Source of the DNA: Heptranchias perlo | Taxonomy: Eukaryota | Reading direction: 5' to 3' | DNA length: 64,000 bases | Assembly (NCBI RefSeq): GCF_035084215.1 | Contig: NC_090333.1 | Location: 61,628,001-61,692,000, forward strand | In this document: positions 15,901 through 56,581 of the stretch, piece by piece | How the letters are laid out: the number at the start of each line of letters is the position of its first letter | Numbering within the stretch: the stretch's first letter is position 1 | Translations under genes and position numbers: made by a program | The notes under the pieces: model-generated | Database searches by the model: none | Told to the model about the DNA's origin: nothing | Seen by the model: only the letters and a program-made list of their open reading frames with translations

Positions 15901-15944
15901 TAGGAATGAATGAGAATGAAAGAGTTTAGAATTTTGTGCTCTTT

Positions 15945-19189: not shown

Positions 19190-19511
19190 TGAGATCTGCA
19201 AACTGAAGATAGTGAACTACTCAGGTCGCTGGAACAACCACCAACACTGGCCCCCTTCCCCCTCCTCCGCTTGCACAAAACAGTCCTTCAACCACTCATA
19301 CACCCACTGTAAACACGCCCAATGGGTGGTATCAAGTATTGGCGTTCATGATGAAGCACATGAAAAGCCAATTTCACAAAAGGGACTCAAGAATGGACTA
19401 GACATGGCAATGGTGGTGAGAATCATAACATTTAACGTGCATTTAACAAAAAACAAATATAAATGAAAAACATGATGTTTCGTCATACATCCTTGTGCAT
19501 ACCCTCGGTGA

Positions 19512-22500: not shown

Positions 22501-22918
22501 TGGTGGGTTCACAAATGGGGAGGTGAAGAAGTGTACGGAAAGTGAAGGGAAGTTGATGATGAGACTTAAGTGGGTGTGAGGAGTGATGTGATGGAGTAGG
22601 CTTAGCAAGACAGAGTGAGGTGGGGGCGGGGGGGTAATGAACACCATGGGATGTAGGTGAATCAGGAACTGTACTCACTTTTCCTGACCTGGTAAGATCA
22701 TGAAAGCGCTTCCTGCATTGCGCCCATGTCCTTGCCACCATGCTCCTGCTGCTCAGCTCCTCTGCCACCTCGAGCCAGGCCTTCTTGGTGGCAGAGGCTG
22801 AGTGCTTCCTCCGATCAGCCAGGTACAGTATGTCCCTCCTGCTCCTCACACTGGCCACTATCAACTCAAGCGAAGAGTCATTAAACCGGGAAGCTGGCTT
22901 AGTTCTTTGATGCTTCAT
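19512..22918 (-). pseudogene. Harbinger Myb/SANT gene of element 2, exons 22918-22679, 22342-22187, 20471-19512
   Basis: RFNDSSLELIVASVRSRRDILY...KKAWLEVAEELSSRSMVARTWAQCRKRFHDLTRSGK|gtgagt. GT-AG boundaries match element 3. Coiled-coil-like exon 3. Confidence 0.88.
20511..22090 (+). mobile_element. 5'-truncated CR1 inserted in intron 2 of the element 2 Myb gene
   Basis: RT motifs ([16 protein letters not shown]). Same subfamily as 11320-13233. The flanks rejoin to match the uninterrupted intron of element 3 (about 43480-43545). Confidence 0.93.
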
Positions 22919-24507
22919 TTCTTCAAATTCCTTCTTTCTCCCTCAAAATCCTTGCTTGGATTAACCCTTTAAATACTCCAGTTCCTAGCAAGTCATTTGG
23001 GTACGCAGCTTGGTGATGCGAAACCTGGACGTTACATTAAGGGCCTTCAATTGAGTCACGATCGCTCAAGCCAACGCATGCAAAATGTTTCCGTGTTTTC
23101 CATGTGATTATTCATCCCCCCCTCTGCTGAATTCCTGCCGCCATGTTAAAATTTACCCTCAAACGTCTGGAAATGTAATCCAAAGTTATTTATTCACAAA
23201 ATAGAGAACACTGTTGTGTATATTCTAGTCAAAGTGCAACCCGTGTATCAATGAGATACAATGGAGCCCAGCTAGCTTTCATGGGAACACAAGTATTAAG
23301 CAAAAAAAAATTATTCCACTCATCAGAGCCATTCATTTCAGTCTATACAGAATTGGCACTGTAAAGGGCTCTACTCTTATTAAATCTCCCGAGAAAGCCA
23401 ACCAAACAATCACTTAATGGTTGTTAGTAGTTTCATTCAGGATGCTGAATTCATTTTTGATCCAATAATATCACTTATTTATTGTCACAGCTCACCTGAT
23501 GTTATTTTCATCCTCCCAAATGAACTTTTAATGCTTTTCCTTTAGTTCTCCTCTCCCACACACTTTCCCAATTGAGGTGGTTAATGTAGGACTACTGCCA
23601 TCCTTTGTCAATTTTGCTCTTTGCCCGACTGCCTCAAATCATTCTGAGCCAAGGAGGCTCCTTCACTCACTCACCCATTTTAGCACAGAGTTAACTCATT
23701 ATTAGATAGGTGGTTCAGCACCATTTTCTGCCCTCTGGAGGATAGTCACCTAATCTCTGCTCAGTACCTTCTTCGAGTGGGACAGCCAAAGTCACCATAT
23801 GGAGCACCATAGACAGTAGCACATCCTTTCTGTCACATGTGAAAAACATCCCATCTATTCAACCACTGCAGTGAAACTGTACATCAGACACCTCACCTAT
23901 TCAACATGACAAGTTTTAATTACTGTTCAGGATGTTCACACATGAATAAATATCAAACTTCTCTTAAGGGCATCTACAATGCAACAAACAGCTGATTTAA
24001 TGTTATATTTCTACCTTAATTTGCAGTTGTTGAATATTTCATGCTTGCCCTTTCCCTGTATTCTCAACTCTCAGAGGAGCACAGCAAGAGTCTGCACCAT
24101 AGAAAAGTTCAGTGATGCTCAAGTGTTTCCTTAGGGACAGCCAATACTATGAAAATATTATTATATTAGGCAGACTATCTGCCACGTCCACTGTCACTAC
24201 CAGCTTACTTTTTTTTAACGAGAGTGAGAATCTTTGCTGGCCACTAGGGAGTGCATTTGCGTAACCTAGGGTGACTCACCCATTGGTTGTCCCTTGTTAC
24301 CTGTCGAGAAATGCCTACCTTCACTCAATGCTTCCCTGATGAAATGATCAAGAATGTATAGGGGAAGGTGTCCACACAAACCCGCATGATATCAGTCTAC
24401 CACACAGCACTATAGAGTGCCAGTGCACTGCGCCATCACACCACAGTAACCAACAGTGTTAACTGTACTCAGTCACAATAAAACAGAAGGCCTGGAACCA
24501 GACTTAC

Positions 24508-24563
24508 GTAAACTGGACCAGTGGTCTTGTTCCTTCCTCCTGGCATGCCATCTTCACGAATAG
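24508..24563 (-). CDS. nr6a1: NR6A T-box/C-terminal-extension exon (56 bp)
   Basis: tttttcag|CTATTCGTGAAGATGGCATGCCAGGAGGAAGGAACAAGACCACTGGTCCAGTTTAC|gtaagt = (A)IREDGMPGGRNKTTGPVY. Joins in frame to the DBD exon (G|CT = Ala) and matches the NR6A1 motif AIREDGMPGGRNK as recalled. Not in the ORF track. Confidence 0.92.
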
Positions 24564-25067
24564 CTGAAAAATAAAGTCATTCATTTCACAAAATGGTGTA
24601 GAACAGGCACATTCTGTCTTTACAATATAATTAATGAGGATTCTTCAATGGATCTTCCAAATTTCTTCACCTCTTCATGAACTACACCATTTTGCATTCA
24701 CATGCAAGATAGCAAGTCATTTATAGGTTTGTTGAATTAGAAAATGTTTTTAACACGACTGCCAAATTGAATCATAATAAAAGCACTATGTTAATCTTGA
24801 AATTCAACTAAGATTCTTTGAGTAGCTTCCACAGTGCTTATATTATTGTGCTGCAGTGCAGCAGTATCAATTTCCACACATCAGTCTAAATTTCCTGTTG
24901 TTTAATGTCCAGTTTTTGGGTGTGAAGTGCACGTAACTGTTCGGAAAATCAGGTGGAGATCCATGCTGCTGGATCTTTGCCCATTTTTTGATCTGTCTGA
25001 TTTTGCGCCCTTAACTATAATGGCTGCAGGAAATATCCGCCAGTTTGTGAGCACTCGACGCAAATGA

Positions 25068-25545
25068 CAGAACATAGGAACATTAGGAACAGGAGTAGGC
25101 CAGTCAGCTCCTCGGGCCTACTTTGCCCTTCAACTAGATCATGGCTGATCTGCACCTCAACTTCATTTTCCTGCCACTGCTCCATATCCCTTGATACCCT
25201 TAACTAACAAAAATCTATCTCAGTCTTGAAAGTTCCAATTGTCCCCCAGCATCCACAACCTTTGGGGGAAGAGAGTTCCAAGTTTCCACTACCCTTTGTG
25301 TGAAAAAGTGTTCCTGATTTTGCTCCTGAATGGCCTGGCTCTAATTTTAAGATTGTGCCCTCTTGTTCTAGATTCCCCCACCAGAAGAAATAGTTTCTCT
25401 GTATCTACCCTATCGAAACCTTTTATAATTTTAAACACCTCGATTAGATCACCCCTCAGCCTTCTAAACTCAATGGAACACAAGCCAAGTTTGTGCAACC
25501 TGTCCTCATAATTTAACCCTTTAAGACCTGGGATCATTCTGGGAA
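25068..25545 (-). mobile_element. CR1 3' fragment
   Basis: RMIPGLKGLNYEDRLHKLGLCSIEFRRLRGDLIEVFK. Tail gaacataggaacattaggaacaggagtaggcc. Confidence 0.9.
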
Positions 25546-26073
25546 ACACTGGAAAAAACTGGAGCAGTCAGCGGTGCATCGTAATCAATCGCCAGCAGCC
25601 GATGTGGTGGAGATTCCACAACGACTGTTCCTGGACTACTCTGACATCTAATGAACATTCCCGGCCCCCCCCCACACACACACAAAACAAACCTCTCAAA
25701 GTCACGTCACAGTCCCGTAAAAACAACTCCTCTCACATGATCGGGTTGAGAACTGACAAAAGCCACCTAACAAATTGGCTCGTAGATCCAGGTGCCAGAA
25801 ACCAGACTGACGTTAAGTGAGCATCTCAACTGCAGTAGCATGGGGACGATTTGCACACGACGATTTCTTTTGCTTGTTTGTTAATCGAGTTTTTGATTAT
25901 TTAATCCACACCAGTCCTTCCATTTACAAGCCCATATAAAGAATGGCACCTGTTTTACCCAGGGCATGGCTTCGACTGCAGTCCCTATTACAGTGCGTAA
26001 TGTTATATTGCTGCTATGCCAGAGTGCACAAATCAGGCATGGTGTTCTCTTAAAAGTCCACATGTCAGCCAAT

Positions 26074-26826
26074 GGGCTGGATTTTGCTGTAAAAATAACG
26101 GTGAAGCTAACAGTTATTCGTGTGCAAATCGGACAGTAACTTGCGGCGACTGCACATGTACAGTTAAATGTGAAATCCAGATGTTGCTGTCCGAGATACG
26201 ATGCTCCTCCAAAAGCTGCACGAAAATGGCATCTCGCTGTCTGACTCACCAATCAGATGTATTGAACAGCGTGAAGTTCCTGCACTTACTTCATAGATAC
26301 AGACTAAACTCGCCACAGAAAGTTAGGGCTTGTCCATTCCAGTGTGAGTATCCTTTTAATGCCTCTTAGTTACAGCCAAGCAACCTCTCTGGCACTGAAA
26401 ATTAACTTTTACAAGTGTTGAGAATCAATCCTTCAGCTTTTAATTATTGTTGGAGATTTTTTAAAAATTTAAATAAAAATGTTTTTTCTTACTGTCTCTT
26501 TTATCTCTCTCTCTTAATCCAATCTTTCTTTCCCTCTTTATTTTGCTTTCTGTACCTGATTTGACATTGAATTCACTATTCGAACTGACACTTCCTGGTT
26601 CAGTCTCTGTCTGGCTCATCAACGATTCTTCAATCTGATTGGTTAAGGGGATACACAGTTGCTTGCCCTGTTCACACAGGTCCCAGATGCTCTGTAGAGG
26701 GCACCGCGGTGGATCGTTAATTTAGAGTAACTTGCCGTGCAAAAGCTCATAGAAAGTCTCTGGGCAAGTGCAAGTCTGACCAATGACTGGTGCCGTTCGT
26801 TCGCTACTCACAGCAAAATCCGATCC
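26074..26826. mobile_element. Harbinger-type MITE (753 bp)
   Basis: TIR gggctggattttgctgt versus reverse complement ggatcggattttgctgt. TSD AAT at 26071-26073 and 26827-26829. Confidence 0.78.
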
Positions 26827-27635
26827 AATGACTTTTGTGAATTAGGAGCAAGATTTTTTTTTTAAAAAACTGTGTAACAGAGCAAGAATATTTGCAGTGC
26901 AATATACAAGTTGTGTTATATAAATGGTTATTCAATGGGTTTGTCTTGCTGTTATTTTTTTTCTATAGCCCCATTTTTTTTTTAAGGAGGAGATAAGTTG
27001 TTTTCAGGGTATAGTTGGTTAGCTCTCTGACGTGACTCTTTTCTGGAACCAGGGGCTGTTGTCTGCACAGAGATGGGATGAAAGTATCCTCTCCACAAGT
27101 TTAAGGAGCCTGAGTGAAATAAGCTCATGCAATCTCAACTTTGCTCCCAGACCTCTTCAAAGTACGCAGGCCGGCCGCTGTAAGATACACCGATCTTCTG
27201 CTGTCTCCTGGGCTGGACAAGGTTCAAAGTGTGTACTGCAGGTATCTGGAATACTGGCAGCGCTATGTTACATTTAGCTTCCATACATCTTCCAATTGGC
27301 TGAGCCACTACTAACATGAGCTGTCTCCTCTCTTGAATTGACAGGCACTGCATCCAAGCGGGGGAGTGCTGGGTCGGGGTGGGGTGGGGGAGTGGTGAGG
27401 GGGCGGATGTGTGGACAGGGCAGAGGAATCTCTTATAGACAAATGTACACACAAGCAACTCGACAAAATCGCATTTTTTAAATAAGAGAAAGGAGAAATG
27501 GAGATAAAGAATCTAAAGTAAGGGATGCGGTCATTCTAGTTCAACTCCCCAAGAGAGAAACAAGTGAACCAATAAAAGTAATATTATTTTTATTGTAATA
27601 TATAGAATAAATATTCCATATATTATATAAAATCA

Positions 27636-28261
27636 TCACACCCCTCTGCAGTGGAGCTCCAAAGCGGTGAAGGGCTCTAAAGGGCCCTTGCCAACTGAAA
27701 GCCAACAATTCAATTTGTGGGACCCATCAAAGATCTGTAGCTCAGTGGACTGTTGCAGAACGATTGAGTCATGGCTGCTCCCTGGGAAATGGGCATTGAC
27801 ATGTAAAATGATCTTTCTGCAGTCGTTAACAATCGGCACCTTTGTAGAGTGGAAAACCTGCCACTCTGAGTCAGTCCACTTCAGTTACTGGGTCCTTTCC
27901 CCATGGAAGCAGGTGAAAGTGCTTCCACTTGACTTATATCACTTGTTTGAAGCATCTGTGACAACTGGCGGATTATAGCTGGTGTCCCCTGTTGTGGCCT
28001 GGACGGATTCTGTGGCGGTAAAAAGTGGAGGCCTCTGCAACCTTCGAAGCTATGGGTAGTGCTGTTCCATTCCTGGAGGTTGTCTGCAGCAGCAGATGGC
28101 AGCATTGGTAAGCTGGGTTTAACAAAAACAATGGCCCAGACTTTGCTGACATAATAATGGGAGCTAAAATACCCTGAGCCTCAAACCTAGACCTGCAAGT
28201 GTGTTTTGTACTCGCCCCATGCCCCGACCGTCCGAGACCCGCTGGGGGTTAAAATCAAGTC
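27636..28261 (-). mobile_element. Old Harbinger remnant with transposase fragment
   Basis: IVNDCRKIILHVNAHFPGSSHDSIVLQQS...NCWLSVGKG. Terminal gggggttaaaatcaagtc resembles the TIR of elements 2 and 3. Limits uncertain. Confidence 0.7.
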
Positions 28262-30116
28262 TGTTGTGGTAATACAAAGTAAAGGACTTAATCACGTTAC
28301 AAATGTTAGTAGCCAGCTTTCCTTTCTCATCCTGACCTGGCTGAATCAGCGGCAGTTGCAATTATTTCCAGTTGCGTGTTGGAAAGCCACATCTCAATGA
28401 TTCTCTGTTTTGCATTCCCACAGTTTGAGTTTCCAGATCTTGTGGGAATACACAGTTGAGGGAACATCCCCAGGATACACAGTTCATTCCTAGATGGAAG
28501 AAAGCTTGAAAGTCCACAACTGATCTAATATTTATGTAACTTTAGATTTGTCACAGGATACTGGTTTGAGGTTTCCTTGTGCCCGTAAGACTGTGAGACA
28601 TTTTGTATTCAGATTGCAGAGTGATTGCAGCCCTAACCATTCAGAGAAAAACACCATGAATAAACAGGTCTATTTCCTGCCCGCATCCTGTTGACTGTCC
28701 CACGCTCTTAATCAGCGTTGAAAGGACTTGCCCTCAATCAAACTTATCTTCTCCATGTGGTAAAATAGAGTTCAAATGAGGATTACTTTTTAAAGTACAT
28801 GCGCACCTTTTTTAAAGTAATGTCCTGACATGGAGGACGTTGGGACAGAACAGGCTCGAGGGGTTGAATGGCCTGCTCCTGTTCTTATGTTCCTAGATGC
28901 AATAAATATAAAGTCGTTTCTCTTGTTTGAGCTCCGTTGGGCAAAATTAAGTCTTCCTAAAAATGTTAACGAGGATGTGACAGTAACAACAGGCAGGTGT
29001 GGACTGACTGGTGATGCTTATTCTCTGCTGTAAATCTGACTGAGAGCTTTCAAAGTTCTACCCTGATATTTTCATAAAAGGGGTTTGAGATGTTTACAAT
29101 TGCAAATGAGAGTCCAACTGCTTGTTCGTCACAGCTTTGACTCCTATTTATCCATCTATCTAAATATCTATTTGTCTATAATATATAAAAAGTCTTGTGC
29201 CTAATGCATAGTTCCTCTTTGTTATGCTTAGTTCCTGTGTCCTGATTTTCTCACTCATGCCTTTGTATTATTTTTAATTGTAAACTAAGATGTGCTTACC
29301 ATGATACTTATCTTTTGGTCCTCCAATGCTAGGTGGCGCCATCACTCCTCCAAGGTCCATCTTCCAGATCAGCTGCAGGTAGGTGTTGTTTAAATGTTAT
29401 GATCCTGAAATTCCTGGTGGGGGGTTTTGCTCCACCGGTGCAAGTTCAGTGGAGCAGAACCCTGGCCTGGCCTGGCCCGAGACTGCAGACACAGTCTCAA
29501 ATTCTGAGCACGGGGTCATTTACCTGGTCAAGGTGGGATACCAGGGCCCACAAGAGCACAACAGCAGCATCCACCCTTGCAATGTAAAGGACCCAGCCAA
29601 GTGTACAGAGCATCTTCAAGACCAACAGAAAATAGCATTAATTCCTCAATACTCGCAGGAGTCACATTTAAAGAAAGTATCAATGAGAAAGAAAGCCAAT
29701 CTGACCTGTAATTGACCTGAAGGACTGCCCAAGAACAATTAGCCTCTAATTGACCCAGGAAGATACAGTAATTAGATCTTGTGGATTTAAAGAGACACCC
29801 TAAATTACACAGAGCTGCACTTCAGTAGCAGAATAATTCATTGTACATTCATGGTATAAACCTCTAGTCCTTAGAAAACAGCGTTTATCTGCCAACCTAA
29901 CATAATCAGTACCACAAGAGATTGTTGAGCAATTAAAAGTATTGTGTTCTTAATGAACTCCTTCCAAAGATAGTGAGGAATTTTTCCACAGATTAACACT
30001 ACCTCTATTTTAAGCATAATTCTTGTCACTTTTATACTTAACCCATTAATATGTTCCCTAACCCTACCTGTAAATAAAACTTGCTATCATTTAAAAGTTG
30101 CTGATGTCAAAAGAAT

Positions 30117-32081
30117 GGGGTATAAATTGGCCTTGGCGGTAGAGTAAAATGGGTGACAGCGAATCCACAGCCTGTTTTATGCAGGCCCGATTTTCTTCTT
30201 CATTTAAGTTAATAGAAAACAATATTGGGCAGGGTGTGAAATGGGCGGGGTCTACAACGGGCGAGGAGTGTAATTTGCAATAGGCGGGTGTGAAACGGGC
30301 GGGGTGTGAAACGGGAGGGGTGTCCAATGGGCGGGGTGTGAAACGGGAGGGGTGTGAAACGGGAGGGGTGTGAAACGGGAGGGGTGTGCAACGGGAGGGG
30401 TGTCCAATGGGCGGGGTGTGAAATGGGCGGGGTGTCCAACGGGCGGGGTGTGAAACGGGAGGGGTGTGAAACGGGAGGGGTGTCCAACGGGCGGGGTGTG
30501 AAACGGGAGGGGTGTGCAACGGGAGGGGTGTCCAACGGGCGGGGTGTGAAACGGGCGGGGTGTGAAACGGGCAGGGTGTGAAACAGGCGGGGTGTGAAAC
30601 GGGAAGGGTGTGAAACGGGAGGGGTGTGAAACGGGAGGGGTGTCCAACGGGCGGGGTGTGAAACGGGCGGGGTGTGAAACGGGCGGGGTGTGAAACAGGC
30701 GGGGTGTGAAACGGGAAGGGTGTGAAACGGGAGGGGTGTGAAACGGGAGGGGTGTGAAACGGGAGGGGTGTGAAACGGGCGGGGTGTGAAACGGGCGGGG
30801 TGTGAAACGGGCGGGGTGTGAAACGGGCGGGGTGTGAAACGGGAGGGGTGTGAAACGGGAGGGGTGTGAAACGGGAGGGGTGTGAAACGGGAGGGGTGTG
30901 AAACGGGAGGGGTGTGAAACGGGAAGGGTGTGAAACGGGAAGGGTGTGAAACGGGAGGGGTGTGAAACGGGAAGGGTGTGAAACGGGAGGGGTGTGAAAC
31001 GGGAGGGGTGTGAAACGGGAGGGGTGTGAAACGGGAAGGGTGTGACACGGGAGAGGTGTGAAACGGGAGGGGTGTGAAACGGGAAGGGTGTGAAACGGGA
31101 AGGGTGTGAAACGGGAGGGGTGTGAAACGGGAGGGGTGTGAAACGGGAGGGGTGTGAAACGGGAAGGGTGTGAAACGGGAGGGGTGTGAAACGGGAAGGG
31201 TGTGAAACAGGAGAGGTGTGAAACGGGAAGGGTGTGAAACAGGAGAGGTGTGAAACGGGAGGGGTGTGAAACGGGAGGGGTGTGAAACGGGAGGGGTGTG
31301 AAACGGGAAGGGTGTGAAACGGGAAGGGTGTGAAACGGGAAGGGTGTGAAACGGGAGGGGTGTGAAACGGGCAGGGTGTGAAATGGGAGGGGTGTGAAAC
31401 GGGAAGGGTGTGAAACGGGAAGGGTGTGAAATGGGAGAGGTGTGAAACGGGCAGGGTGTGAAACGGGAAGGGTGTGAAACGGGAAGGGTGTGAAACGGGA
31501 AGGGTGTGAAACGGGAAGGGTGTGAAACGGGAGCGGTGTGAAACGGGCGGGGTGTGAAACGGGAAGGGTGTGCAATGGAAAGGGTGTGAAACGGGAGGGG
31601 TGTGCAATGGAAAGGGTGTGAAACGGGCCGGGTGTCCAATGGGCGGGATGTGAAACGGGAAGGGTGTGCAATGGAAAGGGTGTGAAACGGGAGGAGTGTG
31701 CAACGGGCGGTGTGTGAAACAGGAGGGGTGTGCAATGGAAGGGGTGTGAAACGGGCGGCGTGTGCAACGGGTGCAGTGTGAAACAAGAGGGGTGTGCAAT
31801 GGGCGGGGTGTGAAACGGGAGGGGTGTGAAACAGGAGGAGTGTGCAACGGGTGCGGTGTGAAACAGGAGGGGTGTGCAATGGGCGGGGTGTGAAACGGGA
31901 GGGGTGTGCAATGGGCGAGGTGTGCAACGGGTGTAGTGTGAAACAGGAGGGGTGTGCAATGGGCGGGGTGTGCAACGGGTGTAGTGTGAAACAGGAGGGG
32001 TGTGCAATGGACCGGGTGTGAAACGGACAGCCGATTCATTATCCTTTGTTTGCGACACCACCCGAGACCAATTTATACCCC
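30117..32081. mobile_element. Harbinger-type MITE containing an expanded minisatellite
   Basis: TIR ggggtataaattggcct versus reverse complement ggggtataaattggtct (16/17). Flanks AAT / AGT (2/3). Confidence 0.82.
30286..32025 (+). repeat. 16-bp G-rich minisatellite, about 108 copies (gggaggggtgtgaaac)
   Basis: Direct reading. The stop-free minus frames repeat every 16 aa = 3 x 16 nt. Variants gggc/ggga/ggaa and tgaaac/tccaac/tgcaat. Confidence 0.97.
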
Positions 32082-32796
32082 AGTGTTTTTGGGTAGTTTG
32101 ACAATGCTGCATTGAGTTGCTGGCTATAAAGGCCATATGTTCATTTGCACATTTGCCAAGTGTCTCTGCGATTTGAGATCTGCCGCTCACATTGAGAAAT
32201 GCCACACTTGACTGGAATGCGGTGACAATTTACAAAGTCATGGCTAGTTGCACTGATGACTATGCATGGGAGATCAGACTATATCAACACAGAGGGACCT
32301 CACCATTGAACATTACAAATGCTCCCCACATTTCCAGTGACCCTGGCAACTGACAGCAGATATAGATCATGCTCGGGGAATAATGATGCAATTCAATCTA
32401 GTAATTATCAATCCGGATACTTTAAATAAAGTTCTTGATATATTGGTAATTACGAATAATATCAACAGATGCTACAAACAAAATAATAAATATATACATA
32501 GCAAAAGGGTAAACCACAGCCAGCTCGATTACTTTTGGTTTGAAACTTTCTCTTGTGGCTCGTTTTGGTCCTTCAGAAACTTGGGGAGGGGGATTCAGTT
32601 CTGGGCACTGGCAGTTTCGCCCTGCTTTTCTCCCCGCTTTTGTTTTTCTACCATTGTTTTCTCCCCATTCCTTCTCCTCTCATCCAATCTGTCAACTTGC
32701 ATTTCATCATTAATATTCTGCAGTAGTCAAAAAAAGAGGCTCAAGTTTCTTTTCAGATGATGCATCCAATCCAACCAAGCAACAGTACTGGCCTTT

Positions 32797-33010
32797 TAAC
32801 AACAACTTGTATTTATATAGCGCCTTTAACGTAGTAAAACGTCCCAAGGTGCTTCACGGGCGTAATTATCAAACAAAATTTGACACCGAGCCACATAAGG
32901 ACAGGTGACCAAAAGCTTGGTCAAAGAGGTAGGTTTTAAGAAGCGTCTTAAAGGAGGAGAGGTAGAGAGGCGGAGAGGGTTTGGGAGGGAATTCCACAGC
33001 TTAGAGCCTA
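32797..33010 (-). mobile_element. L2 3' tail fragment
   Basis: Same sequence as about 14548-14775 (aacaacaacttgtatttatatagcgcc...). Confidence 0.85.
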
Positions 33011-33990
33011 GGATACAATAGACCAGGAAACAACTTTGAATAGTCAAGCTCATTTCTCCAGAATAAAAGGCCATCTCCTGCATGGAGATGCACAGAGTGA
33101 ATCTCTGGAAAGCTCCATGGTTCACAACTGTTTTGCATTACAACAGTGTCACAGCAGAATCTATCAACAAGGTTCTTAACTACAAAGCTGAGCTTAGTCA
33201 TGGCACTGGAGATACATTTAAGAATGGCTCATAATTTTTTCCAGAGCTAAAGATGCCTAAAGTATGAAATGTGCCCCAAAGGACTGAACATATCAAACCC
33301 CATGGAAATTTTAAAGGCTTTGATTTGGGCCCATGTCTGATGTTTGTGTGGCCTCAATCCACTTTGCTAAGAGAACCAGACCCCAAGAGTACATTAACCC
33401 TCTCGACATTTAACATTTTAAAAGCATTTTCTTTGCCTTCTTTAAGATGTATTTTCCTTCTCCTCTGGGTCTCCCTCCTCCCCAGGTTACGATGGATTTC
33501 CGACCTGGAGGTTGCAAACTTTTGTCACGACAAATGCCGTGGCTTAGGGGAAAAAAAAACCTTTTTCCAAAATTACATGAAAGACAAACTATTTCAACAA
33601 TGATGTGGCTTGACATTTAACTGTTATATAGAGGGTGCGTTTATCTCAATCTAGTTTCTCTCTTTGCTGTGGCTCCTGCTGATTTGCCAGCATTTAGTTT
33701 AGATGCTGGAATTAATTTTTCGAGATAGTTGTAATTTTGAAGTCATGGGAACAGCTCAAATGATCTCAAATCTCCCAAAAAACCAGACCAAAAATTGGAA
33801 TTAAAAATATCCCTGACATTTACAATAAAAAGTGCTCAGTCTGCTCAAAAAATAGATCGACTAGCCAAAAAAAACAGACAGGTGACAACCTGACCAAGGG
33901 GGCTCCGCCATTGCCACTCATGAGCCAGTCGCTACTGGATGCATGATAGGCTGGTCATCTGATTGTCCCTCCGTTTGGAGACAAATTGGG

Positions 33991-36735
33991 CCTCCACTCA
34001 CTGCCCCTCCACTCACTAACCCCTCCACTCACTATCCCCTCCACTCACCAGCCTCCACTCACTGCCCCTCCCCTCACTGCCCCTCCACTCACTAACCCCT
34101 CCACTCACTAACCCCTCCACTCACTATCCCCTCCACTCACCAGCCTCCCCTCACTGCCCCTCCCCTAACTAACCCCTCCACTCACTAACCCCTCCACTCA
34201 CTAACCCCTCCACTCACTAACCCCTCCACTCACTAACCCCTCCACTCACTAACCCCTCCACTCACTAACCCCTCCACTCACTAACCCCTCCACTCACTGC
34301 CCCTCCACTCACTAACCCCTCCACTCACTACCCCCTCCACTCACCGGCCTCCCCTCACTACCCCCTCCACTCACTACCCCCTCCACTCACCGGCCTCCCC
34401 TCACTGCCCCTCCCCTCACTACCCCCTCCCCTCACTACCCCCTCCACTCACTACCCCCTCCACTCACCGGCATCCACTCACTGCCCCTCCACTCACTAAC
34501 CCCTCCACTCACCGGCCTCCACTCACTACCCCCTCCACTCACTAACCCCTCCACTCACCGGCCTCCACTCACTGCCCCTCCACTCACTATCCCCCTCCAC
34601 TCACTAACCCCTCCACTCGCTAACCCCTCCACTCACTAACCCCTCCACTCACTAACCCCTCCACTCACTACCCCCTCCACTCACTAACCCCTCCACTCAC
34701 TATCCCCTCCACTCACCAGCCTCCCCTCACTACCCCCTCCATTCACTAACCCCTCCACTCACCGGCCTCCCCTCACTGCCCCTCCCCTCCCCTCACTACC
34801 CCCTCCACTCACTACCCCCTCCACTCACTACCCCCTCCACTCACCGGCCTCCCCTCACTACCCCCTCCACTCACTACCCCCTCCACTCACCGGCCTCCAC
34901 TCACTGCCCCTCCACTCACTAACCCCCTCCACTCACTAACCCCTCCACTCACTACCCCCTCCACTCACTAACCCCTCCACTCACTAACCCCTCCACTCAC
35001 CAGCCTCCCCTCACTACCCCCTCCACTCACTAACCCCTCCACTCACTAACCCCTCCACTCACTACCCCCTCCACTCACTAACCCCTCCACTCACTAACCC
35101 CTCCACTCACTATCCCCTCCACTCACCGGCCTCCCCTCACTACCCCCTCCACTCACTAACCCCTCCACTCACTAACCCCCTCCACTCACTAACCCCTCCA
35201 CTCACTATCCCCTCCACTCACCAGCCTCCCCTCACTACCCCCTCCACTCACTAACCCCTCCACTCACCGGCCTCCCCTCACTGCCCCTCCCCTCACTACC
35301 CCCTCCACTCACTACCCCCTCCACTCACCGGCCTCCCCTCACTACCCCCTCCACTCACTACCCCCTCCACTCACCGGCCTCCACTCACTGCCCCTCCACT
35401 TACTAACCCCCTCCACTCACTAACCCCTCCACTCACTACCCCCTCCACTCACTAACCCCTCCACTCACTAACCCCTCCACTCACTATCCCCTCCACTCAC
35501 TGGCCTCCCCTCACTACCCCCTCCACTCACTAACCCCTCCACTCACTAACCCCTCCACTCACTAACCCCTCCACTCACTACCCCCTCCACTCACTGCCCC
35601 TCCACTCACTATCCCCCTCCACTCACTAACCCCTCCACTCACTACCCCCTCCACCCACTAACCCCTCCACTCACTAACCCCTCCACTCACTAACCCCTCC
35701 ACTCACCGGCCTCCCCTCACTACCCCCTCCACTCACTACCCCCTCCACTCACTAACCCCTCCACTCACTATCCTCTCCACTCACCGGCCTCCCCTCACTA
35801 CCCCCTCCACTCACTACCCCCTCCACTCACTAACCCCTCCACTCACTATCCCCTCCACTCACCGGCCTCCACTCACTAACCCCTCCACTCACTAACCCCT
35901 CCACTCACCGGCCTCCCCTCACTACCCCCTCCACTCACTAACCCCTCCACTCACTAACCGCTCCACTCACTACCCCCTCCACTCACTAACCCCTCCACTC
36001 ACTAACCCCTCCACTCACTACCCCCTCCACTCACTAACCCCTCCACTCACTACCCCCTCCACTCACTAACCCCTCCACTCACTAACCCCTCCACTCACTA
36101 ACCCCTCCACTCACCGGCCTCCCCTCACTACCCCCTCCACTCACTACCCCCTCCACTCACTACCCCCTCCACTCACTAACCCCTCCACTCACTAACCCCT
36201 CCACTCACTATCCCCTCCACTCACCGGCCTCCCCTCACTAACCCCTCCACTCACTATCCCCTCCACTCACCGGCCTCCACTCACTAACCCCTCCACTCAC
36301 TAACCCCTCCACTCACTAACCCCTCCACTCACCGGCCTCCCCTCACTACCCCCTCCACTCACTAACCCCTCCACTCACTAACCCCTCCACTCACTAACCC
36401 CTCCACTCACTGCGCTTCCACTCACTGCCCCTCCACTCACATGCCCCTCCACTCACATGCCCCTCCACTCACTAACCCTTCCACTCACTGCCCTCCACTC
36501 ACTACCCCCTTCACTCCTGCCCCTCCACTCCCTGCCTCTCCACTCACCGCCCCTCCACTCCCTGCCTCTCCACTCACCGCCCCTCCACTCACTACCTTCC
36601 CCTCACTTCCCTTCCCCTCAGGGCCCTCCACTCACTATCCTTCTCCTCACTGCCCTCCACTCACTACATTCCCCTCACAGCCCCTCCACTCACAGCCCCT
36701 CCACTCACTGCCCCCTCAATCACTGCCCCCTCTCC
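33991..36735 (+). repeat. 16-bp C-rich minisatellite, roughly 170 copies (cccctccactcactaa and variants)
   Basis: Direct reading. Variant units ...ctaccccct, ...ctatcccct, ...ccggcctcc. Degenerates toward 36400-36735. Confidence 0.97.
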
Positions 36736-37849
36736 CTAACACCCGGACTGATATTTGACGTCAGCACTTTGGCGAGTTTCAATCCTGTGCCATTAGTACG
36801 ACAGTTTGTACCACAAAGGTGCTTTGCTGCCAGTTTACTGTTCATTAAAAAAAGCCTCTCTAAATCTTTGGAAAGCAATCATAAATTCGGAATAAGCTGT
36901 ACAGGGAAAAAAAAACACGATTGCCCCCCTCCCTCTGAATTTATGTAGCTAGTAACTGCACTGTCTGGTACTTGTAAACCCTGCCTTTATCAAACAGTTA
37001 CAACCAACATTCTTGTACATGATTTGCAAAACAAGGTTTGAAATGTAACTCACGAGTGCCCCTGTTAGTTTTTATTTGCTGTATAGTTTTCAGCTGCTAA
37101 CGCTTCTGGTTTGTGCTGGTAAATGCATTTTCATTGCAGTTTGCATTTTAATTCAATTACAGATTGGTAGAATTTTTTAAAACAGCAAATGACAAACCTG
37201 TGTCCTTTTCTGGCTGACCCAGATTCTGGATCATTACATGAAAGTGTGTTCATTTCCAACTCTCTCCATATACATTACCGATCGCAAGTGGGCTTTGTTA
37301 GAAAGTTGAGTTATTGGTCAGATCTAAACATTCCCTTCAATTTGACCAACCCCTCCAGTTGTACCATTTTGCGTGCAATGAACTGCAGTGACATCCAAAG
37401 TCCTGGCATGCTCCTCCCAAATATAAAACCTAATGCCATCTGACAGCTAGTTGGTTATTGGCTCACTGCCTCTGGGTGGCAGTAATCCCCTCAACTTAAC
37501 TCTCCATTTTCAACTCTTCCCAGTCTGGAGAATCTAAAGTTTGCACAGAAGCAGCTTGGAATCGCCAAACAACATCTGGATCAGATTAAAGAGTTCTGTG
37601 TAAAAGAAGAGGGAGTTCAGTCGATCTGAAATCAGTCCAAGTTAGAAATAGTCTGGGCAGCAAGCAACCTAATTTACAATGCAGTACGGTCTAGCTATAC
37701 TACACGTTAGAGGTCAATTTGGACCCCAAGTCAACTGAAATATGACTTTTGAAAGAAAGTAGGATTGTTTTTCTAGCCCGAGACAGATGCGGCAGGCTTG
37801 CTCCTGCCAGGTTGGAAGAGGGATGGCCCAGGCTGAACTTACAATGTCA

Positions 37850-37992
37850 TCTCGACCCCAAGCTCTGGAATTACCTCCTAAACCCCCTAAAGTGTGGCTT
37901 GGTGTCAATTTTTGTCTGATAACGTTCCTGTGAAGCGTCTTGGGACGTTTTACCATGTTAAAGGTGCTATACAAATGCAAGTTGTTGTTGTT
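37850..37992 (+). mobile_element. L2 3' tail fragment
   Basis: ccccaagctctggaatt...gtgtcaatttttgtctgataacg...gctatacaaatgcaagttgttgttg. Confidence 0.8.
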
Positions 37993-38349
37993 GATGTTGT
38001 CGGCCTCACTTTAATAATTCCAGCAAGCTCCCAGTCCAAATGGGACCTGGCTGTGAGAGCTCACCGAAGGGGAGAGGAATCCACGTATCTCCAGCCTTCT
38101 TGCTGGAGTTGGTTATCTTCCCTCTCTGGGTGCTCCATAATTATGCCTTTTGCACCACGTATATGCAGGAAACCATGGTGATTCTGGAGAATGTGGCTGG
38201 GCTATTTTGAGGGACGTCCCCTGAGCTTTTTAGGGAACTGAAGCACTGCTTTACATGCCTATAGTTGTGCTCTATGATGCCTCGGGTAGCTGCATGCATT
38301 TCATTGCACCAGTGCTTGGCAGTTGAATGTGGCTGCTGTGGAAGCAGTC

Positions 38350-38545
38350 ATGAATGAGGGCTCCAAACGGTAGCCTTGGTTTCTGACGCTAACCTTGCAC
38401 TTTTCTTTGTGGGTCAAATAATGGAGATACAGTGGATTGCCTTAAATTAAAGTCATTATGGCAGCTACCAGGATAGCAGATAGCAACCTGCTACAATGTT
38501 TGTGCTGAGGGTCACATACGAGCTGCACAATGATGGAAGGGCAGT
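38350..38545 (+). pseudogene. Very degenerate Myb/SANT-like exon remnant
   Basis: Pieces FSDANLALF and *QQIATCYNVCAEGHIRAAQ*WK resemble the Harbinger Myb domain. Confidence 0.4.
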
Positions 38546-38949
38546 AATTTCCATTCATGAATGCACAACTATTGTGTGCAGGAGCACATAGCGTCACATT
38601 GACTCCATCAATGACACCCTGGGCTTTGGGGAATCTTGCTAATTAGAAGTGCAATGCCCTCTCATGCTGTTGCCCGTTGACCATGGGGAAAGTGCTGGCA
38701 AACAATGCAAACTATACATGTGTGCACTACAGATTGGCTGATGTTGTTGGCGTCTCTCTGTGGCAGCCTGGGATGAGCCTGAGGCATAAAAGGTCAGGGG
38801 GTAAAGTGACTGCAGAAGCCGCTGGCAGTGCAGTGCCCATGGTGAAGTTTGGCTAAAGGTCCGATTCCAGCATGCCACGTACATCTGTTACTTTCCCCCT
38901 GGTGAATCTTAGTCTATGAAGAAAGATTTCCTCAGAGAAATCAAAGTAA

Positions 38950-39330
38950 AGAAAGAGAGAAAGCACCGGCATTTATATACCACCTTTCACGACCTCAGGG
39001 CGCCCCAGAGTGCATTACAGCCAATGAAGTGCTTTTGAAGTGTAGTCGCTGTTGTAATGTAGGAAACGTGGCAGCTTGGGATGTGGATCCTGAGTTGTTG
39101 AGTACATTCGAGGCTGAGATCGATAGATTTTTGGAGTCTAAGGGAATCAGGGAGATGGGGATCGGGCGGGATAGTGGAGTTGAGGTCGAAGATCAGCCAT
39201 GATCCTATTGAATGGCGGAGTAGGCTCGAGGGGCCGAATGGCCTACTCCTGCTCCTAGTTCTTATGTCCTTATGTTCAAATCATGCACAGCAAGGTCCCT
39301 CAAGCAGCAATGTGATAATGACCAGATAAG
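38950..39330 (-). mobile_element. DeuSINE-like SINE 3' half interrupted by a plus-strand CR1 tail (about 39085-39277)
   Basis: SINE tail atttatataccacctttcacgacctcaggg...gtaggaaacgtggcagc resumes at aaatcatgcacagcaaggtccc. The intervening gatcagccatgat...cctactcctgctcctagttcttatg is CR1. Confidence 0.8.
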
Positions 39331-39984
39331 CCATCCCCACAGACTCATTGGTTAGTTGGTAACTTCAGAGAAAACCAGACGTCCTCGCACTTTTCATTAA
39401 AAAAGGAATTTCACCCCAAAATCTTAACGTGGTCAAATTCAGCCATTTTCTCCCCTCCAGATGTGCAGCTTGGAGTTTAAACATTTCAGACTAACCCAAA
39501 CTTTTTACTTGAAAGATAAATCTGCCATCAGAAATGACGACACCAGAGCGCGATGGGAAATTGAATGCAGAGTGATACATCATAGCCTGTAAAGGTAGAT
39601 CACTAGTACAGTATTAACAGCAATCTAGCCCAGGTCTGAGCATCACTCAATTCTCCTGCTTTTACTGGAGCCAGTTGTCAGAATTTGACAGATGTGCTTG
39701 AGTGTAGTTAAAGGGACATTGCAATCCAGTTGGGAAGGTGAGAAATTGTGATGTAGGGGAGAAGGGGAGAGTTCCGCAGAGAAGAACTAAAGTAAAATAG
39801 TTGAAAGAAAAACGGAGAACAAAACAAGAGAGCAAAGCGACCAGAAAAGCATTTGCAAAACACCTGAGAGAGAGGCATTATACATTGTTACATTATATTA
39901 GGTATTTCACAAAGGCTTCATTATGTGCTGGTCCCAGTCCAGTTTATCTTATCTGCTTGTTTAAATGCAAATTCAGATGTACGC

Positions 39985-40792
39985 ACAGCAGCTCCGATAT
40001 TTACGGGGTGTCAGGGAGGGAGCTGCGGGGACTTGTAGTGGCTGGGAAACCTGGAAGTACGGGGAACGCGGAAGTCCTGCCGAATTTAACAGCATTTGAA
40101 TTTTTTTTTTCTCTATTTGCTGGCCGGCAGCCAGACATATTGAGAGGCTGGCTGGCTGTCGGGTGGGAAGGCCTGCGCTGGAAGGCTGCTGTGGGGAGCG
40201 GAGAGGAGGGAGGGAGAGATCACGGGGTGGGGGGGAATCGGGGGTCAGCCTGGAGATTGGGTGTTGGCCTGGCGATCGGGGGTCGGCCTGGGGATCGGGG
40301 CTCGGCCTGGAGATTGGGGGTCGGGATCGGGGTGGGGGCGGCCTGGGGATCGGGGATTGGCTTGGAGATTGGGGTGGGAAGGGGTTGGCGGATCATGGGG
40401 AAGGAGGCCGATCATGGCTTGGGGGGCTGGGGTGAAGCACTCTTGCTCCTCCTGGTCTACAAGCAGTACTATAAAAACCACTTACTTGCTGGATCTTGCC
40501 GTTCTCACCTCCCTTCAGCAGCTTGGTTTTCCGAGTCCTGGGAAACCCGGCCTGGAGCCGTTAAATCTAAATGTCCGCTAAAATCTGAGGCACGCAGCTG
40601 CATTAGCTTATTTAAATTACTGACCCGCCTCTCGAGAGTGGGTTACTGGCCCACTCCCCCAACCCGTCGCGGTTAAACCAGAAGTAGGCGTGTTCATGGC
40701 AGGTTGGGATCTGGTTTCCCATTTTCAAGAATTGAATCCCCCCCCCGCACCCAACCCTCTCCCACCCGTCCTGGGGGTTTCAAACTCCCCCC
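39985..40792. mobile_element. Non-autonomous Harbinger derivative with internal G-rich degenerate repeats; left end not found
   Basis: Right end cccaaccctctcccacccgtcctgggggtttcaaactcccccc resembles the element 2/3 terminus. About 20-bp ggggatcgggggtcggcct repeats at 40190-40430. Confidence 0.6.
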
Positions 40793-41150
40793 AGTATTTC
40801 AGTTCAAGGTATTTACATTTAAGACATTTCCCTTGTGTTAGTTTAAGTTGTTGATGAGCTGGTTACCACCTCACTCTTTTTTGGATGCAACAACTGTTTG
40901 TGTTGGTCATCGGCTCAGACACTTTCTCAGGCTTGCTGTGCACAGTGATATCAATTGGCTGATATTTAAATAACAATCCATGATTAAATTAAACATATGA
41001 AGGCAGCTCATTCTGTAACGTTCCACACTCCAGAACTCCGAGCAGTTCGAGTGAATGCCAAAGTCAACTGAGGCCTATCTGTGGGAAAACACAAAGAATG
41101 TTGAGCCATGGGAGCCAAGTGCTGTCTGAGAGCACGTGGTCCATGTACCT

Positions 41151-41273
41151 GTGATATTGGATCTGCCGCCCATTATACACCTCTCCTGATTTTCATCGAA
41201 TGAGAGGTGTACAACGGGCGGCAGATCCACTATTGCCCGTTTTACACTTTTGTCCAAAATCAAAATCACCCCC
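41151..41273. mobile_element. Half-MITE with 27-bp-arm palindrome
   Basis: ggatctgccgcccattatacacctctc ... gagaggtgtacaacgggcggcagatcc (25/27 paired). Terminus caaaatcacccc. Confidence 0.6.
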
Positions 41274-41350
41274 ATTGAGTGCAACATCTGGAATGGAAGC
41301 TAAGATAGGACAACAGTGTGTTTAATGATGCTGACAGAAACGTTACCAAC

Positions 41351-41581
41351 CTTTCCTGTTCATGCCCATTTGCAAGCACTTCATCAGCCGGCAGTACTGG
41401 CACTGGTTACGCTGCTTTCGTGACATGGTGCAGTTCTTGTTCCGAATGCATCTGTAAATCCGTTTATTAAATATGCTACGCTTGAAGAATCCTTTGCACC
41501 CTTCACAGGAGGTAATTCCGTAATGTAATCCTGTAGCTCTGTCACCACAGATTAGGCAGACTCGTCTGTCTGAGCGATCGT
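41351..41581 (-). CDS. nr6a1: Nuclear receptor NR6A (GCNF/NR6A1-like) DNA-binding-domain exon, two C4 zinc fingers
   Basis: Translates [76 protein letters not shown]. Acceptor tttttgtttatcag at 41582+, donor AAAG|gttggt at 41350. 231 bp, phase 1-1. The symbol is the nearest family member; orthologue versus paralogue is unresolved. Confidence 0.93.
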
Positions 41582-41845
41582 CTGATAAACAAAAAAATAT
41601 ATTCATTGTTACAATGAATTAAATTGTTTTGATTTGATGATGGATGAGGAAGACAATAGAAATGTGATGTAATCTGCTATTTATTATTGCATATTCGTCC
41701 ACATCTGTTAGAGTTTACCCTTCCAGTAATCAGTTTCAGTTATACTCTCCTCTGCACAGTGTATATAAACATTAGATATCTAACATGTCCAGTTCAAATA
41801 GTTTTTCAAGGACATTTTCCTCCTTCATTTCTGCTATCAACTAGA

Positions 41846-42265
41846 AAGAAAGAAAGACTTGCATTTATATAGCACCTACCATGACATCGCAAAGTGCTTT
41901 ACAGTCAATTAAATCATTTGGAAGTGTAGTGACTGTTATGACGTAGACAACACGGCAGCCACTTTTGTGCAGAGCAAAGTCCCACAAACAGCAATGAGAT
42001 GATGACCAGATGATCTGTTTTAGTGATTTTGGTTGAGGGATAAATATTGGCCAGGACATTGGAGAGAACACCCCTGCTCTTATTTAAAATAGTGCCATGG
42101 GATCTTTTACGTCCACCTGACAGGGCAGACGGGGCCTTGATTTAACGTCTCATCTAAAAGCATAGGCCAACTAAATTAAAGAAGAAAAAAAGACTTGCAT
42201 TTATATGGCGCCTTTCATGACCTCAGGGTGTCCCAAAGCGCTTTATAGCCAATTAAGTACTTTTG
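41846..42265 (-). mobile_element. DeuSINE/SacSINE1-like SINE (41846-42160) plus a second tail fragment (42185-42265)
   Basis: Reverse complement of the SINE body seen at 61657-62118. Confidence 0.85.
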
Positions 42266-42670
42266 ATCACACATCAAATTTGCCACAGATCGAAGACCGA
42301 AGCCATATGGCTAAGATACTGTGTCCTTATCTCTAAGCCATTGATGGAGCCACTCAGATTAAGTTTTTAAGCCAAATCTAGTGACTCTCATTTCAAATGA
42401 AGGAAAGTTGATGGGCATGATTTTAAAATAGCGGCGGGAAGTCAGCGGGGGGGCCGGGGGGAGGGGGAGGGTGAGTAGTCGCGTGGGAAACCCAGGAAAC
42501 TTTTCTGTGTGTCGGCTCGAGCGATCGCGACTAAACTGAAGGCCTTTAATTTTATTTCCGGGTTTCACGCAGCGGGCGTACTGCGCGCCCGAGTGATGTC
42601 CTGGGAACTGGAGTATTTAAAAGGCCATTGCAGCCATGGATTTTGAAGGAGAAAGGAAGAAACTTCAAAA

Positions 42671-44505: not shown

Positions 44506-44828
44506 TCACCGAGGGTATGCACAAGGGTGTCTGTCACAATGTCATGTTTTTCATTTATATTTGGTTTTTATTAAATGCACGTTAAATGTTATGATTCTCA
44601 CCACCATTGCCATGTCTAGTCCATTCTTGAGTCCCTTTTGTGAAAGCGCGCTTTCATGTGCTTCATCATGAACGCCAAGACTTGATGCCACCCATTGGGC
44701 GTGTTTACAGTGGGTGAATACGTGGTTGAAGGACTGTTTTGTGCAAGCGGAGTGGGGGGGAGTGGGGGTCGGTGTTGGTGGTTGTTCCAGCGATCTGAGT
44801 AGTTCACTATCTTCAGTTTGCAGATCTC

Positions 44829-56549: not shown

Positions 56550-56581
56550 ATCAGAAATGAGTTTGTAATTTGAACATTATT

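Follow-up and report, generated by a model that had tools for sequence, protein, structure and literature searches.

The window analysed here, i.e. the whole stretch of 64 kb on contig C9 of the Heptranchias perlo genome, contains 2 exons that were identified by exon modelling as exons 2 and 3 of an NR6A gene of 9 exons and 436 codons, which spans approximately 286 kb and has no internal stop codon (Table 1). The 1311-nt frame was open with GT-AG borders at 8 of 8 introns, exons 2 and 3 were in phase with each other, and no stop, frameshift, splice-site loss, or exon loss of the kind seen in pseudogenes was found in the 1311 coding bases and 16 splice sites examined. A preliminary description of the sequence had assigned the 2 in-frame exons to an NR6A-type DNA-binding domain (DBD) and T-box with intact cysteines and CEGCKG motif, which was borne out, and the downstream exons for the ligand-binding domain (LBD), for which absence or disruption had been considered, were all open.

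Table 1. Exons and introns of the NR6A gene on C9, and neighboring genes on C9 and C34
Feature	Location	Strand	Remarks
Coding exon 1	G000:C9:61762075-61762060	minus	16 nt, MGENE; ~70 kb past window end
Intron 1, 3' part	window 41582..64000	minus	rest beyond window end
Coding exon 2	window 41351..41581	minus	231 nt, AG..GT, phase 1 to 1; complete C4 zinc-finger DNA-binding domain
Intron 2	window 24564..41350	minus	GT..AG, 16.8 kb; position as in C34 NR6A1
Coding exon 3	window 24508..24563	minus	56 nt, AG..GT, phase 1 to 0; C-terminal extension / T-box
Intron 3, 5' part	window 1..24507	minus	whole intron 76 kb
Six remaining exons (hinge and ligand-binding domain)	G000:C9:61576196, 61567366, 61565365, 61547727, 61517265, 61476601	minus	before window start; stop ends 61476513
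V-ATPase G	C9 62.417 Mb	plus	
PTPRC	C9 62.14-62.16 Mb	minus	best solved match CD45, E 2e-23
miR-181a/b	C9 62.004 Mb	plus	
NR5A2	C9 61.378 Mb	minus	47/47 residues identical to 2a66
NR6A1 exon 1	C34 21.235 Mb	minus	
miR-181a/b	C34 21.13 Mb	plus	inside NR6A1
NR5A1-like	C34 20.809 Mb	minus	
Proteasome beta	C34 20.514 Mb	minus	

No first exon was found inside the 64-kb window. A pattern built from the N-terminus of the chimaera and horn-shark proteins gave a single match in 3.25 Gb, located on the correct strand 92 kb upstream (control, 0 matches). An NR6A1-type first exon gave no match on C9 (E up to 1), no CpG island was observed near the first coding exon (observed/expected ratio of 0.15 to 0.55 across 20 kb), and an Rfam scan of the window gave 0 matches.

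The deposited H. perlo model (P0008) begins with repeat-derived exons and omits the true last exon; its N- and C-termini, repeat-derived and mis-spliced, were discarded. Because of its repeat-derived start and missing last exon, the model suggests that the gene has little transcript support. No RNA record was listed for the DBD exon, and 2 exons queried against runs X3, X4, and X5, which are RNA only by guess, recovered no contig of the gene, a result that is neutral with regard to expression. The RefSeq label of the product is NR6A1-like.

Domains of the C9 protein and comparison with NR6A1

The product of exon 2 contains both zinc fingers with the 8 zinc cysteines and the CEGCKG P-box. The best solved match to the DBD was the mouse/human NR6A1 DBD (5krb, E = 4e-39), followed by RXR (E = 3e-26), and the NR6A-type identity of the exons is far beyond chance. 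Of the 58 matches obtained in the genome, exactly 2 were NR6A-type DBDs (100% and 86%), the next match being at 57%. The other NR6A1 locus for which a search had been proposed was located on C34, so the C9 gene is not the sole locus; the DBD of the C34 protein, which is NR6A1 in the deposited record P0276, was identical to that of mammals at 66/66 positions. Compared with this own-genome NR6A1, the C9 protein was identical at 58/66 positions in the DBD core (8 differences) and at 23/26 in the extension (3 differences), in exact agreement with the numbers estimated in the preliminary description. The NR6A-type C-terminal extension after the second finger, AIREDGMPGGRNK, was present and unchanged.

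Both zf-C4 and Hormone_recep (Pfam) were over the cut-off in the C9 protein. The LBD was 55% identical to that of the own-genome NR6A1 and ends 7 residues past the last conserved HSC, with no further AF-2 helix in the alignment; NR6A1 is likewise described without AF-2 in a passage of PMC10909835. A structure predicted for the sawshark orthologue, rather than for the H. perlo protein, suggested a helical LBD with pLDDT values of 80 to 94 that matches nuclear-receptor LBDs. The stop codon in the C9 gene is located at the site of a Trp in the sawshark and chimaera, whose proteins extend 7 to 27 residues further; beyond this stop codon, two miR-181 sites are predicted. By its DBD, extension, LBD, and position in the tree, the C9 protein belongs to the nuclear receptor subfamily NR6A. 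By analogy, homodimeric binding to DR0 / TCAGGTCA and repression of transcription, the NR6A hallmark, are predicted for it.

At sites that are nearly invariant from amphioxus to mammals, the three full-length orthologues share six fixed changes. These include I to T ahead of the P-box, C to F beyond helix 1, a D-box change of S to I, and V to T, as well as SI..Q to TT..Y in the extension. Such changes, together with an LBD diverged by 45%, would fit a paralogue that has been neofunctionalised and now prefers other response elements or dimerises in another geometry, as had been proposed at first. However, the P-box and AIREDGMPGGRNK are unchanged, the D-box occurred in 21 different forms among the stored NR6A-type proteins, 4 of the 8 DBD core changes are not shared with the chimaera orthologue, and the solved NR6A1 DBD chain has a Ser at the C-to-F site. 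Furthermore, an excerpt of PMC7515732 presents GCNF on DR0 as RXR-like, i.e. non-cooperative, and the repeated loss of the gene suits redundancy more than a new role. The claim of altered dimerisation or response-element preference was therefore not upheld, and we consider a new role of this kind unlikely.

Orthologues, constraint, and decay

Full-length orthologues were on record from two sharks and a chimaera. Those of Pristiophorus japonicus (sawshark) and Callorhinchus milii (chimaera) clustered in one clade with the C9 model with 100/100 support; their LBDs were 90% and 80% identical to the C9 LBD, respectively, and the DBD was identical to that of the sawshark at 65/66 positions. Only short, decayed models of 112 to 137 amino acids were identified in Heterodontus francisci (horn shark), with R to W, R to C, and G to R replacements. 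In the relatives X1 and X2, the DBD exon was broken by a stop codon (CGA to TGA in the second finger), and a 10-nt deletion was seen at its donor end. No copy from a ray, another shark, or a bony vertebrate was found in the protein collections searched. Short frog and sturgeon "NR6A1-like" proteins were considered as orthologues and rejected, since they are pieces of NR6A1. The gene has been kept by a chimaera and some sharks, while other sharks seemingly are losing it and bony vertebrates apparently have lost it.

The LBD of the C9-type gene was 90% identical between two sharks, whereas that of NR6A1 was 99% identical between shark and skate. In the largest LBD exon, 11 amino-acid-changing and 9 silent differences were counted between the C9 gene and X1 in 86 codons. 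Had the lineage been neutral after it separated from X1, approximately 7 to 15 indels would be expected in the coding length, as scaled from the intron indels relative to run X1, whereas 0 frame-breaking indels were observed, for which the rough probability under neutrality is 0.008 to 6e-5. The C9 clade had a long stem of 0.77 changes per site in the tree, and the H. perlo branch itself measured 0.044. On these sequence comparisons, the gene is best read as being under relaxed but real constraint.

Alternatively, the gene could be an ohnologue that is already silent or effectively neutral in H. perlo, a young pseudogene awaiting a frame-breaking hit. The broken DBD exon in X1 and X2 and the short models in H. 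francisci would be in keeping with such a state, as would the faster rate, the earlier stop, and the poor deposited model. However, the absence of lesions from the coding bases and splice sites contrasts with the neutral indel expectation, the branch leading to H. perlo is short, and the DBD is nearly identical to that of the sawshark. We therefore regard a silent gene as quite improbable and retain the reading of an intact gene under relaxed constraint.

Duplicated blocks and the age of the split

The C9 gene is located in tandem upstream of NR5A2 on the same strand at a distance of 97 kb, and the distance between NR6A1 and its NR5A gene on C34 is 84 kb. The NR5A family, the miR-181 pair, and V-ATPase G were present on both C9 and C34, as in a duplicated block, and the synteny with NR5A and miR-181 that had been suggested as a check was thus seen on both contigs. 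The DBD exon of the C34 NR5A gene did not type it cleanly (91.8 bits to NR5A2 vs 90.0 to SF-1). PTPRC was recognised by its phosphatase family and by its match to a solved structure, whereas a Pfam CD45 family search gave no hit, and a dDENN profile search gave 8 matches in the genome, none on C9 or C34. The gene closest to mammalian NR6A1, flanked by NR5A1-like and proteasome beta genes, is the C34 gene, whereas the neighbors of the C9 gene are NR5A2 and PTPRC. The C9 gene is thus a second NR6A paralogue and not the NR6A1 orthologue, as had been suspected from the sequence. No paper on it was found in the literature searched, outside which lies the 2020 shark nuclear-receptor survey by Fonseca and colleagues, where it may already be listed.

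The C9 gene resembles NR6A1/GCNF of jawed vertebrates in its DBD, P-box, AIREDGMPGGRNK, short C-terminus without an AF-2 helix, and intron positions, which were common to the C9 and C34 genes at the 7 junctions compared, as in a DNA-level copy. It also shares the upstream tandem position to an NR5A gene and an antisense miR-181 that precedes its DBD exon; mouse Nr6a1 contains an antisense miR-181a2/b2 pair, according to parts of PMC9755267 and PMC10909835. It differs in its chromosome block, in its LBD (53% to 55% identical to NR6A1 generally), in beginning with a 5-codon first exon, with 13 residues preceding the first cysteine, and in being several-fold faster and patchily retained. Furthermore, its miR-181 pair is located upstream, at a distance of 242 kb from the first coding exon, whereas that of NR6A1 is located between coding exons. 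No alignable 3' UTR was found between the C9 gene and C34 NR6A1 except for one repeat.

In a 13-row tree, the 8 jawed-vertebrate NR6A1 rows formed one side of a branch with 70/79 support, and the 11 jawed-vertebrate rows were separated from amphioxus and Ciona with 100/98 support; this tree left out 14 rows, comprising hagfish, Lottia, brittle star, one amphioxus, the short horn-shark model, teleosts, and redundant NR6A1. In the 27-row tree, for which the careful search was incomplete and long-branch warnings were given, the C9 clade was placed outside all jawed-vertebrate NR6A1 with a support of 91, and hagfish was unplaced. The best trees thus agree on a split before the divergence of sharks and bony fishes, with which they are compatible but not decisive, since a grouping of the C9 clade with shark NR6A1 was not rejected (p-AU 0.191). 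The genome-duplication origin proposed earlier rests on gene order, with the tree being compatible, and the C9 gene is likely an ohnologue of NR6A1 from the early vertebrate genome duplications.

A duplicate that arose only in the cartilaginous-fish lineage, by segmental copy or transposition of NR6A1, and then evolved fast would agree with the p-AU value and with the gene being known only from cartilaginous fishes in the protein collections. Yet such a copy would have had to land upstream of NR5A2, on the same strand and with antisense miR-181 upstream, in the layout of the other block, and the best trees place the clade outside jawed-vertebrate NR6A1. The block predates the shark/bony split because NR5A1 and NR5A2, a paralogue pair according to a passage of PMC3923872, are both present in mammals. 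We find this origin highly improbable. The deposited name might imply that the C9 gene is orthologous to NR6A1 or a duplicate of it made in assembly, but this is refuted by the canonical NR6A1 on C34, the divergent LBD, and the different neighbors.

A second NR6A gene is also found in fish genomes with teleost nr6a1a and nr6a1b, but both nest inside ray-finned NR6A1 (96 to 98 support, 27-row tree); they derive from the later teleost duplication. Insect Hr4 is NR6A2, assigned to subfamily 6 by nomenclature in parts of PMC1847479 and PMC7827873, but is a protostome gene unrelated to the vertebrate NR6A duplication; because it bears this name, NR6A2 is unavailable for the shark gene. Neighboring receptors duplicated together are described for THRA-RARA-NR1D1 and THRB-RARB-NR1D2 in an excerpt of PMC3923872, where NR6A1-NR5A1 is given as a block without a partner; here, in contrast, the partner NR6A copy persists, though it is confined to some cartilaginous fishes.

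Proposed history of the second NR6A gene

Taken together, we consider it probable that the C9 gene is an intact, likely duplication sister of NR6A1 that was copied in a block with NR5A and miR-181, and that it encodes a predicted AGGTCA/DR0-binding repressor, an orphan receptor like NR6A1. After the duplication, the NR6A1-type first exon would have been lost from the C9 copy and a 5-codon first exon then gained downstream of the miR-181 pair, whereupon the copy, evolving fast, may have become a partly redundant, narrowly used partner of NR6A1. It could then have become expendable without loss of the microRNAs, because these were no longer within its coding span. This would explain both the repeated decay in sharks and the NR6A-less miR-181a1/b1 site in mammals, which we take to be located between PTPRC and NR5A2 in the human gene order.

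More tentatively, there may have been two ancestral jawed-vertebrate NR6A genes, one per NR5A-miR-181 block, of which the second is predicted to work in chimaeras and squalomorph sharks and would be in the midst of decay elsewhere, the orphan miR-181a1/b1 being its trace in bony vertebrates. In the mouse, the number of thoraco-lumbar vertebrae is set by the dose of Nr6a1, as reported in a part of PMC9755267, so that retention or loss of the second copy might have shifted the dose of NR6A, and perhaps its targets, during axial or gonadal development of sharks.

The gene presents no new mechanism, and its protein is already in RefSeq. A passage of a 2024 review describes Nr6a1 as the sole member of subfamily 6, without a close homologue (PMC10909835), and a second vertebrate member would alter the ancestral receptor count. 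The miR-181 clusters would also gain a history, in which the a1/b1 pair resided in an NR6A locus that has been lost, and the natural gradation from an intact through a decayed to an absent gene would allow a study of how a duplicated developmental regulator is slowly lost. The dose role of Nr6a1 in the mouse makes the second copy directly testable in embryos of chimaeras and of some sharks.

Two NR6A-type genes in the Heptranchias perlo genome

The window corresponds to G000:C9:61628001-61692000, on contig C9 of the H. perlo genome. Among solved sequences, its DNA-binding domain (DBD) was most similar to the NR6A1 DBD (5krb, E 4e-39), followed by RXR (3e-26). The genome contained 58 DBD matches, 2 of which were of the NR6A type: the window exon and an exon on contig C34 that was 86% identical to it, the next match in the genome being 57%. 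The C34 gene provides the second, more canonical NR6A1 locus sought in the preliminary description, with a complete exon set, a DBD core identical to that of a mammal at 66 of 66 residues and a ligand-binding domain (LBD) identity of 85%. The earlier count of about 8 changes in the 66 DBD residues and 3 in the T-box proved exact when set against this NR6A1, from which the C9 gene differs at 8/66 residues of the DBD core and 3/26 of the C-terminal extension. Intron positions were common to both genes at the 7 junctions compared, and the LBD identity between them was only 55%. It was also noted that 2 pairs of nuclear-receptor exons (C34:36513648 and C1062:143808; C15:53013432 and C291:3552) are probably assembly duplicates, since scores and frame lengths were identical between chromosome and small contig.

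A protein search identified an H. perlo record, NR6A1-like, with a DBD identical to that of the window, as well as close relatives from the sawshark Pristiophorus japonicus and the chimaera Callorhinchus milii. The downstream exons, which had been left to be checked, were recovered by mapping the relatives' proteins on 200 kb of neighboring DNA, and consisted of 6 further C9 exons for the hinge and LBD, all open. The models of the chimaera and the horn shark Heterodontus francisci start with MGENE, and this start plus a donor-site pattern gave a single match across the 3.25 Gb genome (control, 0). The assembled gene contained 9 exons, 436 codons and no stops, with GT-AG ends in 8/8 introns. 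The window is therefore located entirely within a gene of about 286 kb. The deposited protein model P0008, which looks to be without transcript support, misses the true first and last coding exons, and its N-terminus was rejected as derived from a repeat with many genomic copies.

Positions of features in the C9 gene and at related loci
Feature	Position	Strand	Remarks
First coding exon	C9:61762075	as gene	MGENE plus donor-site pattern
DBD exon	window 41581-41351	-	NR6A-type; AG and GT ends, in phase
Extension exon	window 24563-24508	-	56 nt; AG and GT ends, in phase
True last coding exon	C9:61476601		absent from deposited model
miR-181 (two 8-mers) and let-7 (one 7-mer) sites	G000:C9:61476513 minus 114-220 nt		after stop
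P0008 opening exons	window 43534-43626, about 42700-42894	-	repeat-derived
P0008 terminal exon	G000:C9:61512000-61511893		wrong
Intronic tandem arrays	window 2892-3130, 30286-32026, 33991-36744, 48561-49068		21-mer x 11, 32-mer x 54, 16-mer x 176, G-rich
Transposon remnants	window 3747-4397 (-), 21031-21729 (+), 53311-54162 (+)		pieces of DDE_Tnp_4 transposase, reverse transcriptase, LINE-type endonuclease
Stop in X1/X2	window 41420		CGA to TGA, second finger
Deletion in X1/X2	window 41351-41360		10 nt, donor end
NR6A1 DBD	C34:20971991
Third NR5A gene	G000:C40:5127000-5136999		changed Ftz-F1 stretch
Third miR-181 pair	C40:10.628 Mb		mature sequences of a and b types

Phylogeny and gene order

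In a tree of 13 sequences, the C9 model and the sawshark and chimaera proteins formed a single clade (100/100) with a long stem (0.77). The best tree placed this clade among jawed-vertebrate NR6A proteins, outside the NR6A1 sequences, with a support of only 70/79, and constraining it with shark NR6A1 cost 5.6 log units (p-AU 0.191). A quick tree of 27 sequences gave 91 for 17 NR6A1 proteins, and left the hagfish unplaced. Given this support and p-AU value, the duplication was dated from the gene order and not from the tree.

From high to low coordinates, C9 contained genes for V-ATPase G (+), a two-domain phosphatase (-) with CD45 as its top solved match, miR-181a/b (+), the NR6A-type protein (-) and an NR5A protein (-) with a second DBD exon 47/47 identical to NR5A2. 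The order on C34 was NR6A1 exon 1 (-), an intragenic miR-181a/b pair (+), the remaining NR6A1 exons and an NR5A1-like gene (-), which had 4 SF-1-type residues and near-equal scores for both NR5A types; past it were a proteasome beta gene and, farther away, V-ATPase G. Human 1q32 contains ATP6V1G3, PTPRC, MIR181A1/B1 and NR5A2, in that order and on the same relative strands as on C9, and is not known to contain an NR6A gene; 9q33 contains PSMB7, NR5A1 and NR6A1. The third NR5A gene and miR-181 pair, separated by 5.5 Mb on contig C40, where NR6A searches of the genome gave no match, probably represent another copy of this block.

Mouse Nr6a1 contains an antisense miR-181a2/b2 pair (PMC9755267, PMC10909835). 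On C9, a distance of 242 kb separates the miR-181 pair from the first coding exon, which is located downstream of it, and an NR6A1-type first exon gave no match on this contig. From these observations, the C9 microRNAs would seem to have become independent of the coding gene, in which case the NR6A-type gene could be lost while the miR-181 pair stayed.

Retention and decay of the second gene

The KRSIF signature was found in at least 5 proteins from 3 species among the best 120 of 181 matches listed, and 5 of the 6 matches in an LBD search were these same proteins. A search for shorter proteins added one species, H. francisci, among the best 120 of 845 matches listed, and a 50%-cluster search added none beyond it among 150 matches listed. 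The ATGLHYG motif occurred in 245 of 377 stored proteins, and the signature in 11, representing the window's own translation and proteins of H. perlo, sawshark, chimaera and horn shark. For catshark, bamboo sharks, skates and rays, NR6A1 alone was present among 15 of 73 cluster members listed, an absence that refers to protein collections, not genomes.

The RefSeq label of the gene is NR6A1-like, and the name NR6A2 is used in the literature for the insect Hr4. We found no account of this second gene in a literature search with most subscription papers outside its scope. A 2020 survey of nuclear receptors in sharks and chimaeras, or its supplements, may already include the gene. A 2024 review describes Nr6a1 as the sole member of its subfamily (PMC10909835), and the available part of PMC3923872 contains no account of a second shark NR6A.

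X1 and X2, DNA runs of relatives from one study, each contained the orthologous DBD exon on one contig, with I changed to N, Q changed to H and 5 further differences. Judged from its sequence, the gene in these relatives is a recent pseudogene, because this exon has acquired a stop and a 10-nt deletion, and the largest LBD exon has kept an open frame (of its 86 codons, 11 have replacing and 9 have silent differences). The 4 short isoform models of H. francisci (112-137 residues) include the DBD, with nothing beyond the extension exon, and would give DBD-only proteins if translated. They differ from the C9 model at 10 positions, among which R is replaced by W at two and by C at another, and G by R at a further one, a pattern that looks like decay.

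The H. perlo intron differed from X1 by 3-6 indel events in 268 bases. The neutral expectation on the H. perlo branch was about 7-15 indels and no coding lesions were seen, giving a rough P for a lesion-free frame of 0.008 to 6e-5 if rates are equal. Also in favor of a working gene, the C9 DBD was identical to that of sawshark at 65/66 residues, and the LBD was 80% identical to that of chimaera. Both zf-C4 and Hormone_recep scored over cut-off in the C9 protein, and the predicted sawshark structure had a helical LBD matching receptor LBDs (pLDDT 80-94 in helices, 57.7 overall). Evidence against a working gene was an LBD identity of 90% between the 2 sharks, compared with 99% for NR6A1 between shark and skate, the apparent lack of transcript support for the deposited model, and a C9 stop codon located where both orthologs read Trp, which leaves a tail equal in length to that of NR6A1. 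The C9 gene is a real second vertebrate NR6A, and is likely to be working.

Predicted regulation and DNA binding

The two miR-181 8-mers and the let-7 7-mer of the C9 gene are all within 220 nt of its stop codon; 1995 windows from this region included 21 with two or more such 7-mers. The C34 NR6A1 has one miR-181 8-mer at 189, a like distance, and a let-7/miR-196 site at 362. Feedback by miR-181 on the C9 gene is predicted.

NR6A1 targets DR0 or the extended half-site TCAGGTCA, binds better as a homodimer, and has an LBD without AF-2 that recruits co-repressors (PMC10909835). Because the P-box, the recognition helix, the AIREDGMPGGRNK stretch and the same short C-terminus have been kept, the C9 protein is predicted to bind DR0 or the extended half-site as a homodimer and recruit co-repressors, as NR6A1 does. 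The changes previously stressed as indicating altered dimerization or response-element preference turned out to be weak signs of new specificity, since 4 of the 8 in the DBD core are not common to the chimaera ortholog, the D-box has 21 forms across stored NR6A-type proteins, a count of 102 other receptors included 8 with RNQ before the seventh cysteine, the C-to-F site is Ser in the solved NR6A1 chain (5krb), and GCNF on DR0 has been compared with the non-cooperative RXR dimer (PMC7515732). Six changes were fixed across all 3 full-length orthologs, and these, above all TT..Y in the extension, may have shifted the flank preference.
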